64,000 nucleotides of DNA from positions 1-64,000 of the forward strand of contig CAVXPZ010000004.1 of assembly GCA_963763775.1 (NCBI GenBank). The letters run 5' to 3'. A program made the position numbers and the translations under genes. The notes below the pieces were generated by a model. That model made no database searches. It had not been told where the DNA came from and saw only the letters and a list, made by a program, of their open reading frames with translations. Positions 399 to 10,857 of the stretch are shown piece after piece (positions within the stretch are counted from its first letter, which is position 1; each line of letters starts with the position of its first letter). The DNA is from an uncultured Chloroflexia bacterium. Its GTDB lineage: Bacteria; Chloroflexota; Limnocylindria; Limnocylindrales; CSP1-4.

Positions 399-1016
399 TC
401 AGACGGCCCGTCGGCCTTGGAGGGCGCGGATCAGGGTCACTTCGTCGGCATATTCGAGGTCGCCGCCGACGGGCAGACCGCGCGCGATGCGGCTCACCTC
501 ACCCACGACGGCCTCGAGGCGCTCGGCGAGGTACATGGCCGTGGCCTCGCCCTCGAGGGTCGGGTTCGTGGCCAGGATGACCTCGACGAACGGCGCACCC
601 TCGCGTTTCGCGTCATCGGCCCGGGCGAGCAACTCGCGGATCCGCAGCCGGTCCGGGCCGATCCCGTCGATCGGGGAGATCGCGCCATGGAGCACGTGAT
701 AGAGGCCCTTGAACTCGCCGGTCCGCTCGAGCGCGAGGACGTCCAGCGGCTCCTCCACGACGCAGAGCCGCGACTGGTCCCGCCCGGGGTCGCGGCAGAT
801 CGGGCAGAGCGGGGCATCGCTGATGTTGAAACACCGGTCGCAGAACACCACCTTGTCCCGGACGTCGACGAGCGCGGCGGCCAGGGCCCGGGCCTCGGCG
901 TCGGGTGCACGCAGCAGGTGGTACGTCAGGCGCTGGGCGGTCTTGGGACCGATCCCCGGGAGACGTGCGAACGACTCGATCAGTCGGGCGACCGGTTCGA
1001 TGACAGGGGAAGCCAC
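399..1016 (-). CDS. recR: recombination protein RecR
   Basis: LPGIGPKTAQRL HhH motif, C4 zinc finger, Toprim ATNPTLEGEATA, GLPVGGDLEYAD. Confidence 0.98.
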   Translation of the reverse strand: MASPVIEPVARLIESFARLPGIGPKTAQRLTYHLLRAPDAEARALAAALVDVRDKVVFCDRCFNISDAPLCPICRDPGRDQSRLCVVEEPLDVLALERTGEFKGLYHVLHGAISPIDGIGPDRLRIRELLARADDAKREGAPFVEVILATNPTLEGEATAMYLAERLEAVVGEVSRIARGLPVGGDLEYADEVTLIRALQGRRAV

Positions 1017-1031
1017 GGACTTACGGCCGAC

Positions 1032-1337
1032 CTACATGCCCGGGAGACGGAGCCCGCCCGTGACGGCGGCCATCTTCTGCTCGGCGAGGTCGCGCGAGGT
1101 GCGCAACGCGTCGTTGACTGCCGCGACGACCAGGTCCTGGAGCATGTCGACGTCCGCGGGGTCGACCGCCGACGGGTCGATGGTGACGCTCACGAGCTCC
1201 TGCTTGCCGGTCACCTGGGCGGTCACGACCCCGCCACCGGCCGAGCCGTCCACGATCGTCGACTCCAGCTCGGTCTGGATCCGCAGCATCTCCTGCTGCA
1301 TCTGCTGGGCCATGCGCTGCAGATTGGCCATCCCCAT
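1032..1337 (-). CDS. ybaB: YbaB/EbfC nucleoid-associated protein
   Basis: AQQMQQ..GSAGGGVV..DMLQDLVVAAVNDA; lies between dnaX and recR; AGGAG RBS upstream of ATG 1337. Confidence 0.95.
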   Translation of the reverse strand: MGMANLQRMAQQMQQEMLRIQTELESTIVDGSAGGGVVTAQVTGKQELVSVTIDPSAVDPADVDMLQDLVVAAVNDALRTSRDLAEQKMAAVTGGLRLPGM

Positions 1338-1410: not shown

Positions 1411-3129
1411 TCAGCTGACCTCGCCGACGTCGACTCGCACGTCCGCGAAGATCCGGCCGGCTTCCGCGATGACCTCGTCCGGCGCCATCGGCGGCGGGAT
1501 CTCGATGTTGGTCGCAACCGCGCGCACCGCGACGTCGCGGCCGAGGAACGCCCCGAACGCAGTCTCGAGCTCGGGGCGCTTGCGCTCGGCCTGATCCTTC
1601 AGGAAGCCCCGGCTCTCCGGGAAGCCGAGGGTCACGACATTGCCGTCGACCGCCATCGGACGGCACTCGTTGATGACCGCGCGGGTCGCCGGGCCGACCG
1701 AAGCCACGATCTCCGGCCAGCCCGCCTGGAGACGGGCGAGGTCGCCGCTAGCCGACACGACCGGTAGGGGCGTCGTGGACGCGCGTCCGCCATCGGCCTC
1801 AGATGGCGAGCTGCGGTCGGACGTCGAGGACGCGGCGACGGACGACGCCCCGGGCGCGGGGATCGCCTCGGCCGCGGGCGTCTCGGCGGGCGCGGCCGGA
1901 TCGGTCGTTCGGGCAGCCGCGTCGACGGGCACCGGCGCGACCTCGATCGGGACCGCGACGGGCTGCGCCGGCCGGCGCGAGGGCTGTGAAGGAACGGGTT
2001 CGATGGGCTGGGATGCCGTCGTGCGAGCTGGCGCCGCCGATGGCGCGGGACGCCTGGCGACAGCGCCGGCCGAGGCCGTCGAGGATGGGTCGGCGCCGGA
2101 GCCGGCGAAGAGCGCGAGCTCGAGCTGGAGCCGGAGACCGCCCACGCCCGCGCGGTCCGGGTCGATGGCGGCGAGTCGGCGCGCGGCGTCGGTCAGGCCG
2201 GGCGTCATCGCGTGATCGGTGCCGGACAGGCTTTCGACCAGTCGGGCGCGGATCACCTCGATGGTCTGGTCGAGCAGGGTCCGCACGTCGCGACCGCGCT
2301 CGTCCATGGCGTCGAGCAGGGCGATCCCGGCGGCGGCATCCCCGTCGATCAGCGCCGTGACGAACCCGTCGACCGCGTCGGCGTCGGCGAGACCCAGGAG
2401 GTCGCGCACGCGGGCCTCGTCGATGGTGTCCGGCGCGGACGAGAGGAGTTGGTCGAGCATCGATTCGGCGTCGCGCATGCCGCCCGCGGCGAGGCGGGCG
2501 ATGAGGTGCAGCGCCGCCGGGTCCGCGGTGCGACCGTCGGCCTCGAGGATCCGGGCGAGCTTGCCTTCGATCTCCGCGGTCGTCAGCCGACGAACGTCGT
2601 ACCGCTGAAGCCGCGACAGGATCGCGGGCGGGAACTTCGACGGCTCGGTGGAGGCGAACATGAACGTGACGAAGTCGGGCGGTTCCTCGAGCGACTTGAG
2701 GAGGGCGTTCCACGCCGGCCCCGTGATCTGGTGGGCCTCGTCGAGGATGTAGACCTTGCGGCGCAGCTCGCCGGGGGGATACGGCAGGCGCTCGCGGAGA
2801 TTCCGGATGCTCTCGATGCCGTTGTTGCTGGCGGCATCGATCTCGACCAGGTCGAGTGTCGTCCCCTCGCGGATGCCGACGCACGACGGGCAGACGTCAC
2901 AGGCGTCGCCATCCTGGAGGTTCGTGCAATTGAGGGCCTTGGCCAGGATCCGGGCGAGCGAGGTCTTGCCGGTGCCGCGCGGACCGACGAAGAGGACCGC
3001 GTGGGACACCCGATCGGTCCGGACGCCGTTCCGGAGCGTCTCGACCACCGCCTCCTGGCCCACGATCTCCGCGAAGGTCTGCGCGCGCCAGCGGCGATAG
3101 ATGACCTGGTGCTGGACGGGTGAGGTCAC
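1411..3129 (-). CDS. dnaX: DNA polymerase III subunit gamma/tau
   Basis: YRRWR..F.EIVGQE, GPRGTGKTS, EIDAASNNG, LDEAH, LLKSLEEPP; GTG start 3129 after GGAGGAGG. Confidence 0.97.
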   Translation of the reverse strand: MTSPVQHQVIYRRWRAQTFAEIVGQEAVVETLRNGVRTDRVSHAVLFVGPRGTGKTSLARILAKALNCTNLQDGDACDVCPSCVGIREGTTLDLVEIDAASNNGIESIRNLRERLPYPPGELRRKVYILDEAHQITGPAWNALLKSLEEPPDFVTFMFASTEPSKFPPAILSRLQRYDVRRLTTAEIEGKLARILEADGRTADPAALHLIARLAAGGMRDAESMLDQLLSSAPDTIDEARVRDLLGLADADAVDGFVTALIDGDAAAGIALLDAMDERGRDVRTLLDQTIEVIRARLVESLSGTDHAMTPGLTDAARRLAAIDPDRAGVGGLRLQLELALFAGSGADPSSTASAGAVARRPAPSAAPARTTASQPIEPVPSQPSRRPAQPVAVPIEVAPVPVDAAARTTDPAAPAETPAAEAIPAPGASSVAASSTSDRSSPSEADGGRASTTPLPVVSASGDLARLQAGWPEIVASVGPATRAVINECRPMAVDGNVVTLGFPESRGFLKDQAERKRPELETAFGAFLGRDVAVRAVATNIEIPPPMAPDEVIAEAGRIFADVRVDVGEVS

Positions 3130-3162
3130 GCCTCCTCCGATCGAGGGCGAGCCGGGTCGAAG

Positions 3163-3430
3163 TGCCGTGCACCCACCGTCGATCGAGAACGTCCCCGTGC
3201 CCACCATGACGAGCGGCTCGGACCAGGCCGTTCCGCGGCACCCGGCGATGATCGCTTAGTGCTGCTTCCTTCCGGACCTGACACGGTTCGCGGTTCGCCG
3301 CTGCGCGGGACCCGATCCTCAACGTCGCATCGTCGGGCGGCGTTCGGAGACGGAGACCTCGGGAGGGGATTCAGCCCTGCTGGAGCGGATTGCAGGTACA
3401 GGGCACCGCTAGTTCCCCGCCTAGCACGGC
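3163..3430 (-). ncRNA. ffs: signal recognition particle RNA, large (Alu-domain) bacterial type
   Basis: Helix-8 motif TCAGGTCCGGAAGGAAGCAGC; 5' GCCGTGCTAGGCGGGGAACTAGCGGTGCCCTGTACCTGCAATCC pairs with 3' GGGTGCACGGC; upstream of dnaX; TATCCT -10 just upstream. Confidence 0.93.
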
Positions 3431-3836: not shown

Positions 3837-3924
3837 TGGCGGAGAGGGCGGGATTCGAACCCGCGACGGGTTGCCCCGAACCGCATTTCCAGTGCGGCGC
3901 CATAGTCCACTAGGCGACCTCTCC
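3837..3924 (-). tRNA. tRNA-Ser(GGA)
   Basis: Anticodon arm CCGCA-CTGGAAA-TGCGG, long variable arm, GGTTCGAATCC, encoded CCA. Confidence 0.97.
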
Positions 3925-4094: not shown

Positions 4095-4180
<86 letters not shown>

Positions 4181-4251
4181 GCGCGAGAGGATACCAAACC
4201 CGGCGACCGGGACCCCCAGGCGATGGTCCCGGGTCAGGCGTGGCGGCCCGG

Positions 4252-4692
4252 TCAGCCGACCGGCAGACCGGCGAACAGCGCCTGGGCCTCGTCGCGGCGG
4301 ATGCCGCTGACGACCTTGATGCGCCGCGGGAGCGAATCGTGCTGGGCGAGCTGGATGACGGTGCCGGCCGCGCCGTCGATGTCGTTCGGGAGGGCGAAGA
4401 CGAGCGCCTCGACATCGCTCTCGAGGAGCGCCCCGACGCACATCGCGCACGGCTCGAGGGTCGTGAAGATCGTGGCATCGGCGAGCCGCGTCGAGCCGAG
4501 CTTCCGGGCGCCTTCCCGCAGCGCGACGATGACCGCATGGGCCGTGGGGTCGTTCGTCTCCTGGACGCGGTCGTGGGCACGAGCCACCATCGCCTCGTCG
4601 ACGACGGCGACCGCCGCGATGGGGCGCTCGCCGCGCGAGGCCGCGAGCTGGGCCTCGGCGAGGGCCTCGCCCATGAACAATTCGTAGTTCAT
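4252..4692 (-). CDS. tadA: TadA-like nucleoside deaminase family protein, catalytic Glu replaced (HAV)
   Basis: DPTAHAV, TLEPCAMC, GAAGT; tadA-tRNA-ffs-dnaX synteny; TAGCAT-7nt-ATG leaderless start. Confidence 0.88.
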   Translation of the reverse strand: MNYELFMGEALAEAQLAASRGERPIAAVAVVDEAMVARAHDRVQETNDPTAHAVIVALREGARKLGSTRLADATIFTTLEPCAMCVGALLESDVEALVFALPNDIDGAAGTVIQLAQHDSLPRRIKVVSGIRRDEAQALFAGLPVG

Positions 4693-4814
4693 GGCTTCGA
4701 TGCTAGCAGACGGGGCGGGCCCGGCCGTCACCGCCGGCGGGGGTCTGGCGGCGGCCGGACGCAACCCGTTCGCAACCCTCGTGGCGCGCGGCCGAGGCGT
4801 ACGATTCGGTCGCC

Positions 4815-8432: not shown

Positions 8433-9516
8433 ATGTTCGTCGTGATGGCCACCACCGCCACCGAGGCCGAGAGTCCTCGGGGTGAAGAGCCAGATCCTCG
8501 CCGAGGGGCTGACGCCGTTCGACCACGCCGGCACCGATCATGTGGTCATCGCGGTCGTCGGGGAGATCGGCGCGAGGCGACCCGTGCTGCTCGACCGGTT
8601 CGCGGCGATGCCCGGGGTGATGACCGTCACGCCGATCAGCAAGCCGTTCAAGCTGACGTCGCGCGAGTTCCATCCCGAGGACACCGTGATCCGCGTCCTC
8701 GACGCGGTCATCGGCGACGGCTCGCTCACGATGATGGCCGGCCCCTGCTCGGTCGAGAGCCGGGACCAGCTCTTCGAGACCGCGGACGCGGTCAAGGCGG
8801 CCGGGGCGACGATCCTGCGGGGCGGCGCGTTCAAGCCGCGGACCAGCCCGTACGCGTTCCAGGGCCTCGGGGTCGAGGCGCTCCGCTACCTCGCGGAGGC
8901 CCGTGAGCGGACCGGCCTCCCCGTGATCACCGAGGTCATGGAGCCCAACCAGGTCGACATCGTCGCCGAGTACGCCGACATCCTCCAGATCGGCACGCGG
9001 AACATGCAGAACTACTCGCTGCTCCGCGACGTGGGCCGGGTCGCGCGACCCGTCATGCTCAAGCGCGGCTACGGCGCGACCGTCGAGGAGTGGCTGATGG
9101 CGGCGGAGTACATCGTCAGCTCCGGCAACCCCAACGTCATCCTGTGCGAGCGCGGGATCCGGACGTTCGAGACCTACACCCGGAACACGATGGACCTTGC
9201 GGCCGTGCCGCTGGTCCACCAGCTCAGCCACCTGCCCGTCATCGTGGATCCGTCGCACGCCACCGGGAAGCGCTGGCTCGTGAAGCCGCTCGCGATCGGC
9301 GGGGTGGCCGTCGGGGCGGACGGGGTCATGGTCGAGGTCCACCCGACGCCCGACCAGGCGCTGTCCGACGCCGAGCAGCAGCTGACGCTGCCCCAGTTCG
9401 CCGACCTGATGGCGGCCATCGTGCCGGTCCATGCGCAGGTCCGGGCGCACCGCCGTGATCCGCTCGACGCGGGCGCCACCAGCCCGGTCGGCGGCGGGGG
9501 CTTGTCGAAGCATTGA
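8433..9516 (+). CDS. aroF: DAHP synthase type I-beta with N-terminal regulatory domain (frameshift near 8472)
   Basis: [51 protein letters not shown]. Confidence 0.95.
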
Positions 9517-10857
9517 TCGCGACCGACGTCGCCCGGGTCCGGCCGGCCGCGCGCCTGCGCGGGACGCTGCGCCTGCCCGGCGACAAGTCCGTCAGCCATC
9601 GGGCGCTGCTGCTCGCGGCCCTGGCGGCGGGCGAGAGCCGGATCGCCGGCGCGGGCGACGGGGCGGATGTCCGGTCGACGGCCGGGGTCGTCCGGGCGCT
9701 CGGTGCGATCGTGACGCGTCTCGACGAGGACGGCCCGACGGTCGGCTATCGCGTGGTCTCGCCGGGCGCCGATGGTCTTCGCGGACCCGACGCCGTCCTC
9801 GACTGCGGCAACTCCGGCACGAGCCTGCGGTTGACCGCGGGCGTGCTCGCCGGCCTGCCGTTGACGGTCACCTTGGACGGCGACGATTCGTTGCGTGGGC
9901 GTCCGGTCGCTCGTATCATCGAACCGCTGCGCCGCGATGGGAGCGGTGCTCCACGCCCGTCAGTCGGATTCGCTGCCCCCGCTGACCGTGACCGGTCGGA
10001 CGCCACTCACGGCCATCGACTACACGACCCCGGTCCCGAGCGCCCAGGTCAAGTCGGCGGTGCTCCTCGCGGGGCTCCGGGCGGACGGGCGCACGACCGT
10101 CCGCGAATTGGTCGCGACGCGCGATCACACGGAGCGCATGCTCCGCGCACGAGGCGTGCCGGTCGACCGAGGCGGCGCGGGCGACGATGACTCGGGCGAG
10201 ATCGTCTCGTGGACGGTGCAAGGAGGGATCGACGTGCAGGCGGTGGATCAGCAGGTGCCCGGGGATGTCTCCGCGGCGGCGTTCTGGCTGGTCGCCGGCG
10301 CCACGCACCCGGATGCCGAGCTGACCCTGCGCGATGTCGGCGTGAACCCCACGCGGCGCGCGGTCATCGACCTCCTGCGCCGCATGGGCGCGGACATCCG
10401 CGAGTCGCCGACCGACGACGACGGGGTCGGCGAACCGCTGGCGGACCTCGTCGTCCGCTCCTCTGCGCTCCACGGGATCGACCTCGAGCCGGCCGACGTC
10501 GCGGCGGCGATCGACGAGATCCCGGTCCTGTGCCTCGCCGCGGCCCTGGCCGACGGCCCGACGACGATCCGCGGCGCCGGCGAGCTCCGGCACAAGGAAT
10601 CGGACCGGATCGCGGGGATCGCGGCCGGGCTGACGGCCCTTGGCGCCCGCGTGCGCGTCGAGGGCGACGACCTCCGCATCGACGGCGGCGCCCGCCTCCA
10701 TGGCGCGCCCACGGACAGCCTCGACGACCATCGACTGGCGATGACGTTCGCGATCGCGGGCCTCGTCGCCGAGGGCGAGACCACCATCGAGCGGCCGCGC
10801 TCGGCCGCGATCTCCTATCCCGGTTTCTTCGACGACCTCGAAAGGGTGCGAGCATGA
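9513..10857 (+). CDS. aroA: EPSP synthase (frameshift near 9930)
   Basis: [48 protein letters not shown]. Confidence 0.95.

Follow-up and report, generated by a model that had tools for sequence, protein, structure and literature searches.

What remains for a TadA to do when neither its catalytic glutamate nor the tRNA that it edits can be found? TadA is regarded as an essential, near-universal bacterial enzyme. The question is raised by a gene in a stretch of 64,000 nucleotides (the window; positions 1 to 64,000 of contig CAVXPZ010000004.1, assembly GCA_963763775.1), whose product, P0001, has valine in place of the glutamate of the HAE motif. The gene comes from a Candidatus Limnocylindria (Chloroflexota) genome and by its position is the tadA orthologue there. 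We consider it highly probable that P0001 is a conserved but dead TadA orthologue, in a lineage that no longer makes inosine at tRNA position 34 (I34). The parts of the gene that the argument needs are the following:

4252..4692, minus strand: coding sequence of the glutamate-less TadA orthologue P0001, 146 amino acids plus stop (open reading frame (ORF) translation, Pfam, NCBIfam, phmmer)
4531..4533, minus strand: codon 54, GTC, Val at the position of the catalytic Glu, E59 of E. coli TadA (sequence and phmmer alignment)
4438..4539, minus strand: zinc-ligand region with H52 (4539-4537), C82 (4449-4447) and C85 (4440-4438), invariant in 54 HAV and 9 HAE sequences

The translation contains NDPTAHAVIVAL and LEPCAMCVGA, with the motifs DPTAHAVI and EPCAMC, and its start was fixed at 4692 because the N-terminus MNYELFM is conserved in the orthologues. 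Pfam returned MafB19-deam (87.8 bits) and dCMP_cyt_deam_1 (76.6 bits). The sole strong match in NCBIfam was the TadA equivalog NF008113, with 115.2 bits, which is under its 150-bit cut-off, and phmmer against the PDB sequences put E. coli TadA variants on top (E = 3.9e-28), followed by other TadAs. V54 aligns there with the Glu of HAE in E. coli TadA, whose numbering is that of P0001 plus 5 (V54 = E59, H52 = H57, C82 = C87, C85 = C90). An earlier note, made from the DNA letters alone, had read DPTAHAV in place of HAE with the zinc ligands kept, further departures from E. coli TadA (EVPVGA to ERPIAA, WN to HD, (D/N)AK to NDI, NHR to PRR) and the absence of the C-terminal FFxxRR. Translation and alignment bear out all of these: H52, C82 and C85 are retained, and P0001 stops at residue 146, while the HAE TadAs of the sister families possess FFxxRR.

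The valine is common to the relatives. Orthologues were taken from the relatives' loci, identical duplicates were removed and the rows L018, L021, L022 and L023 (frameshifted or partial) and L031 (a paralogue) were dropped, which left 54. Position 54 is Val in 53 of them and Leu in one (G072); thus the valine that the earlier note proposed to check at orthologous loci is indeed no peculiarity of this genome, and every orthologue inspected from this family (f1) and from a second one (f4) lacks the glutamate. The codon is GTC in 32, GTG in 21 and CTG in one; as GTC and GTG both occur, Val has been kept through synonymous change. The Glu codon is GAG in all nine HAE TadAs of the class. The claim that two substitutions separate GAG from GTC holds for this genome, but GTG, the codon of 21 of the 54 orthologues, can be reached from GAG in one step. 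In the databases we obtained 3675 matches to P0001 and examined the motif in the best 120 (82-100% identity), all of which have HAV (120/120); fragments with F, A or P at position 54 exist as well. The homologues are labelled 'tRNA(adenine34) deaminase' (JGI) or 'nucleoside deaminase' of Candidatus Limnocylindrales or Chloroflexota metagenome-assembled genomes (MAGs; NCBI), and in a scan of genome contigs most of the matching records were soil MAGs of Candidatus Limnocylindrales, Limnocylindria or Chloroflexota.

The substrate has gone too. The genome (3.30 Mb, 4 contigs, 71% GC, 87% complete) has 52 tRNA genes called by ARAGORN, with the Arg anticodons CCT, TCT, CCG, TCG and GCG; tRNA-Arg(ACG) was not found among these 52 calls from an 87%-complete genome. 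A G34 tRNA stands in the window 2.6 kb from the P0001 gene:

7335..7410, minus strand: tRNA-Arg(GCG), in place of the TadA substrate tRNA-Arg(ACG) (RNA gene scans)

The Arg codons of this genome are CGC (43%), CGG (34%), CGA (10.5%), CGT (7.5%), AGG (4%) and AGA (0.6%). The single A34 call of ARAGORN, a 'tRNA-Gly(acc)', was rejected as a false positive, having no Rfam tRNA match at E <= 1. It is one of several over-long calls of 94-98 nt in this genome (G000:C4:570851-570945, C1:1044374-1044471, C1:1486035-1486128 and C3:156857-156951).

From the class, 201 genomes with a completeness of at least 80% were sampled, and matches to P0001 (E <= 1e-8) and the two tRNA-Arg patterns were counted by family:

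f1, own family: P0001 match 56/62, GCG pattern 55/62, ACG pattern 0/62
f2, same order, genomes of ~1.1 Mb: P0001 match 0/7, GCG pattern 7/7, ACG pattern 0/7
f3: P0001 match 50/61, GCG pattern 3/61, ACG pattern 40/61
f4: P0001 match 65/69, GCG pattern 64/69, ACG pattern 0/69
f5: P0001 match 1/1, GCG pattern 0/1, ACG pattern 1/1

Among the genomes counted, five are flagged as unpublished (G102 and G135 in f3; G122, G156 and G189 in f4); none of their sequence was used, and the tRNA/TadA pattern is independent of them. Identity to P0001 falls into two groups, f1 and f4 at 54-100% and f3 and f5 at 38-47%, and the orthologues inspected from f3 (six) and f5 (one) have HAE with an FFxxRR-type end. 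HAV therefore pairs with GCG and HAE with ACG. In the genome-reduced f2, GCG stands without any TadA-like gene: a search with P0001 found none in 16 genomes (0/16), and although 12 of the 16 match PF00383, the six loci inspected all encode Cdd-type cytidine deaminases. The replacement of tRNA-Arg(ACG) by tRNA-Arg(GCG), which had been proposed from this DNA, is thus found in most of the sampled f1 and f4 genomes, none of which shows the ACG pattern (0/62 and 0/69). tRNA-Arg(UCG) is present on both sides of the divide, which fits the order described for Mollicutes in the available text of PMC3711424, with UCG gained first and ACG then giving way to GCG.

Some f3 genomes look different. G061 has both the ACG and the GCG patterns (C21:239814-239835 and C30:84329-84350). 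Two genomes of the genus g23, G089 (C21:4142-4163) and G196 (C163:1498-1519), have a tRNA-Arg(GCG) like that of f1 and f4, and their matches to the TadA model are only weak and RibD-like; two of their three sampled congeners, G047 and G079, have strong TadA matches. G061, G089 and G196 could be intermediate states, a second switch, binning problems or assembly gaps.

The gene has nevertheless been kept intact, as the earlier note had supposed, and it is under purifying selection. The median pairwise ratio of nonsynonymous to synonymous substitution rates (dN/dS; NG86) is 0.266 among the HAV sequences (1406 of 1431 pairs, dS < 1.5) and 0.378 among the HAE TadAs of the class (36 pairs). P0001 is 55-63% identical to the proteins of seven f4 genomes, and the ATPase region of the adjacent DnaX 49-54%, so its conservation is equal to or above that of DnaX. 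H52, C82 and C85 are invariant across the 54 HAV and 9 HAE sequences; DPTAHA and EPCxMC, with E80, P81 and M84, are invariant too. Furthermore, the HAV clade has six invariant residues of its own, Y3, E4, A29, F76, G110 and S129, at positions that in the HAE clade vary or hold another residue.

Frameshifts are apparent in 4 of the 21 orthologues of the same genus. In G007 (L023), G015 (L021) and G016 (L018) there are single-base insertions both in the tadA-like copy and in the neighbouring pfk, and these frameshifts are probably assembly indels because pfk in the same loci is frameshifted too. The 'no match' of G118 was considered as a gene loss and rejected, the contig being broken directly upstream of pfk.

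The gene also appears to have a promoter of its own:

4700..4705, minus strand: TAGCAT, -10-like hexamer that spans nt 13 to 8 before the ATG (orthologue comparison)

A TAnnnT hexamer (TAGCAT, TATGAT or TATCAT, often with TG before it) starts 12-15 nt upstream of the start in 50 of the 54 orthologues, and three of the four exceptions are f4 loci with a GGAGG-like stretch there. A leaderless-type promoter is suggested because TAnnnT is kept in a background of 71% GC. A consensus sigma-70 scan found no promoter for the P0001 gene; the leaderless -10 that had been read from this DNA gains support from the orthologues all the same.

Regarding the fold, the AlphaFold2 (AF2) model of P0001 (pLDDT 96.7, pTM 0.91) has the TadA core, and Foldseek placed the TadAs of B. 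subtilis, S. aureus and E. coli on top (TMq 0.94-0.95, root-mean-square deviation 0.8-1.1 A). After the last strand there is a single short helix (133-140) in which E135 and F140 are retained, and the C-terminal FFxxRR helix is absent from the HAV clade in the alignment as well as in the model. The strand-2 residue N46 is Asp (D41) in 47 of the 54 orthologues and N, E, R, Q, P or A in the others. The conserved Lys after strand 4 (K110) is lacking in the clade, position 105 being I in P0001 and R in 41% of the clade, and the invariant N127-H128 has become P-R. The signatures of the TadA clade, as the available text of Iyer 2011 gives them (PMC3239186), are a strand-2 N, a basic residue after strand 4 and two helices after strand 5, the first with E and F; in their place P0001 has D41, I105 and one helix, with E135 and F140 present. 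The HAV proteins are acidic, more so than the HAE TadAs: their median net charge is -6 (pI, the isoelectric point, 5.2), compared with -3 in the HAE set of the class and -1 among 40 representatives.

A homodimer of P0001 is predicted with a score of 0.87, against 0.00 for the best control; three runs agree on the contacts, the partner has a pLDDT of 92 and the interface comprises residues 43-70, 82-92 and 105-122. The mark of this tool was reached by 20 of 30 structures that pair one chain with itself and by 1 of 23 single-chain structures, and the pass may reflect only the likeness to solved TadA dimers. Compared with bacterial TadA (NF008113; 1Z3A, 2B3J, 7CPH), P0001 is thus alike in position, tree, fold, zinc ligands, EPCxMC and predicted dimer. 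However, it differs in having Val for Glu and N46D, in the loss of the basic residue, the NH motif and FFxxRR, in scoring under the equivalog cut-off (115 versus 150 bits) and in coming from a genome where no tRNA-Arg(ACG) was found.

A tree was built with 23 HAV proteins, the 9 HAE TadAs of this class and 30 further HAE sequences, representatives in a library at 50% identity. In it the HAV proteins are one side of a branch with an SH-aLRT of 91 (99 with P0162 included), and the TadAs of f3 and f5 form a separate clade of their own. P0162 was tried as the closest active (HAE) sister and rejected: its C-terminal half aligns with the HAV clade and its N-terminal half is RibD-like, so it looks like a chimeric metagenome record and was not treated as an intermediate. 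A metagenome scan with another representative, the HAA protein P0173, yielded four canonical HAE TadAs and nothing else, none of them near a tRNA.

We can now suggest a history for the gene. In the ancestor of f1, f2 and f4 the decoding of CGY would have moved from the A34 tRNA-Arg(ACG) to the G34 tRNA-Arg(GCG), with tRNA-Arg(UCG) and tRNA-Arg(CCG) covering CGA and CGG. Once A34 was replaced, TadA would have been left without its only essential substrate, and it would then have lost the proton-shuttle Glu (to Val) and the elements that contact the tRNA anticodon. The gene would have been lost outright only in the genome-reduced f2; f1 and f4 would have kept it as an expressed, zinc-binding, homodimeric protein of TadA fold under purifying selection. 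The zinc pocket and Y3, E4, A29, F76, G110 and S129 may bind a ligand; nucleobases, nucleotides and RNAs are candidates, as are protein partners, an active TadA excepted. The selective constraint, together with the newly invariant residues and the conservation of the promoter, favours a new function over slow decay. The binding part of this proposal, a non-catalytic role of the zinc pocket in the homodimer, is tentative, and we would give it rather less than an even chance. As a compromise between this part and the dead orthologue, the explanation as a whole seems to us somewhat more probable than not. A narrower form of it, which we put forward as a speculation that is rather unlikely to hold in its details, is that the TadA scaffold was re-used after the change from A34 to G34 as a zinc homodimer in whose remodelled pocket (E59V, N46D, open C-terminus) a ligand, e.g. 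a guanine-containing anticodon loop, another RNA or a nucleotide, is bound but not turned over, in a regulatory or chaperone role in translation.

Several points weigh against the proposal of a dead but useful TadA. The loss of deamination is inferred from the role of the HxE Glu, which characterised deaminases need according to the available text of Iyer 2011 (PMC3239186). The zinc pocket (DPTAHA, EPCxMC) varies no more than that of active enzymes does, and residual or altered catalysis would fit this as well. Canonical tRNA binding, in turn, is doubtful because the protein is acidic and the RNA-contact motifs are missing. All the genomes are MAGs and this one is 87% complete, so unassembled DNA could hide an ACG tRNA or a second deaminase. 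In G022 the tadA-like copy is frameshifted and the neighbouring pfk is intact, and since f2 is without the gene, its function is dispensable in at least one lineage. Finally, there is only a weak hint of transcription. Among public sequencing runs none held more than 0.16 of the sampled words; contigs of three soil RNA libraries (two of them possibly one data set) cover parts of the ORF with 85-97% identity, which means that they derive from relatives, and one contig joins tRNA-Ser(CGA) to the ORF, but such libraries can contain DNA.

The alternative that survives best is that P0001 is still an enzyme, in which another residue, e.g. D41 at the N46 site, transfers the proton, or in which the zinc site acts on a new substrate. 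It would explain why the zinc ligands, DPTAHA and EPCxMC are invariant, why the N46 site is Asp in 47 of 54 orthologues and why purifying selection stands at a level similar to that of active TadAs. Nevertheless, position 54 tolerates Leu in one genome and F, A or P in database fragments, and residual catalysis was weighted low because D41, the candidate replacement, is not invariant: 7 of 54 orthologues have N, E, R, Q, P or A there. Moreover, we know of no characterised deaminase of the cytidine deaminase (CDA) fold that works without the Glu of HxE or CxE. We hold this alternative to be improbable.

A second alternative takes the gene for a functionless relic on its way to loss, intact by chance or through neighbouring DNA such as the promoters of the tRNA and signal recognition particle (SRP) RNA genes. 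That the substrate is gone, that f2 lost the gene and that frameshifts are apparent in the genus all agree with it. A relic should not, however, show a dN/dS of ~0.27 over 1406 pairs, an amino-acid conservation at or above that of DnaX across two families, new invariant residues and a conserved -10 element of its own, and three of the four frameshifted copies point to assembly indels. This makes simple decay quite improbable in our view, and a retained dead TadA accounts better for the constraint.

The earlier note had also offered P0001 as the inactive half of a deaminase heterodimer that would parallel Tad2/Tad3 in bacteria, and this suggestion was not supported. The comparison itself is apt as far as the domain goes: Tad3, described in the available part of PMC3239186 as the Glu-less partner of Tad2, and ADAT3 share with P0001 a TadA-derived domain, the kept zinc ligands and Val for the HxE Glu. 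But Tad3/ADAT3 has an active paralogue and an N-terminal tRNA-binding domain, and P0001 has neither; no ADAT3-like N-terminal domain was found in what is a 146-residue single-domain protein, no A34 tRNA to be edited was found in its 87%-complete genome, and a homodimer is confidently predicted. In this genome the P0001 ORF is the only match of six HAE TadAs in tblastn, and PF00383 adds to it just a cytidine deaminase of the Cdd type. The heterodimer was weighted very low because the active partner was not found in this genome, and we regard it as very improbable. In its favour, two f4 genomes carry an additional HAE TadA-like gene, which we note beside this question: G219:C6:14231-14638 (L064; on a 931-kb contig) and G088:C60:1478-1894 (L066; on a 7.6-kb contig) stand beside an HAV copy in their genomes and have an FFxxRR-type end. 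In the tree, however, both group with unrelated representatives, apart from the TadAs of the class, and the ACG tRNA pattern was not found in either genome. We read both as acquired or mis-binned genes rather than as members of an ancient paralogue pair.

A sequencing or assembly error at the Glu codon can be dismissed, as the earlier note had done: the assembly has at least one likely indel (the split aroA described below), but here the change is a substitution, not an indel, which recurs in the 120 closest homologues and, with GTC/GTG variation, in orthologues from over 50 further genomes.

The loss of I34 is already known. As far as the sources available to us describe it, Mollicutes replaced tRNA-Arg(ACG) by GCG and lost tadA (Yokobori et al. 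2013, PMC3711424), Thermotogae and Spirochaetes have tRNA-Arg(GCG) instead of ACG (PMC8007984), and inosine was lost several times across bacteria together with the target tRNA (Diwan & Agashe 2018, PMC6063277). In Mollicutes and the other inosine losses, the parts of these papers available to us describe tadA as lost, whereas here a Glu-less copy is retained under selection in two families; f2 alone follows the Mollicutes-type route of tadA loss. A retained Glu-less bacterial TadA was not found in the literature searched, which did not cover supplementary tables such as the species list of Diwan & Agashe 2018.

What does this mean for the study of decoding? Here CGN is decoded as in archaea, by G34, in a whole lineage of free-living soil bacteria that has no editing substrate, and homology surveys that score 'TadA present' would misread the decoding here because the annotation calls the protein 'tRNA(adenine34) deaminase'. 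A dead TadA at a housekeeping level of constraint would be a natural experiment in the repurposing of a modification enzyme whose substrate has disappeared, and a Tad3-like loss of Glu would have arisen without a partner subunit. P0001 is also a small, defined and well-folding target for the study of a non-catalytic function of the deaminase fold.

Downstream of the P0001 gene, on the same strand, the window has two tRNA-Ser genes and then the SRP RNA gene, dnaX, ybaB and recR, which the earlier note had named as the classic TadA locus; pfk diverges from the gene (Pfam scan of the window proteins):

4199..4211, minus strand: terminator-like hairpin and T-run 40 nt past the P0001 stop (consensus match only; 1 found versus 0.3 expected in shuffles)
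4095..4180, minus strand: tRNA-Ser(CGA), conserved downstream neighbour (ARAGORN and Rfam-type RNA scans)
3837..3924, minus strand: tRNA-Ser(GGA) (RNA gene scans)
3165..3429, minus strand: large bacterial SRP RNA, ffs (RF01854, 179 bits)
1411..3207, minus strand: dnaX, ORF bounds, with the start codon somewhere inside (DNA_pol3_delta2, DNAX_ATPase_lid, DnaX_C)
1032..1337, minus strand: ybaB/ebfC (YbaB_DNA_bd, 114.3 bits)
399..1016, minus strand: recR (RecR_HhH, RecR_ZnF, Toprim_4, RecR_C)

The tRNA-Ser(CGA) gene adjoins the orthologue also in the f1 and f4 loci and in some f3 and f5 loci.

Two further observations were made on this genome. Outside the window there is a genuine tRNA-Ile(UAU) at G000:C3:703896-703972 (locus L199, 197-270; ARAGORN, Rfam tRNA 72.5 bits), and PF01171 (the TilS-type ATP_bind_3) was not found in this 87%-complete genome, while 14 of 14 control genomes match it. 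The lineage may therefore have given up lysidine-dependent decoding of AUA, in which case a second anticodon-modification system was replaced by a plain tRNA. Inside the window, on the plus strand, aroA (EPSP synthase, read from the translations) appears split into the overlapping ORFs 9513-10190 and 9895-10857 (window 9513-10857). This is a frameshift, either real or, as is likely, an assembly indel, and it lies within an apparent row of shikimate-pathway genes (DAHP synthase-like, aroA, aroE and aroC).

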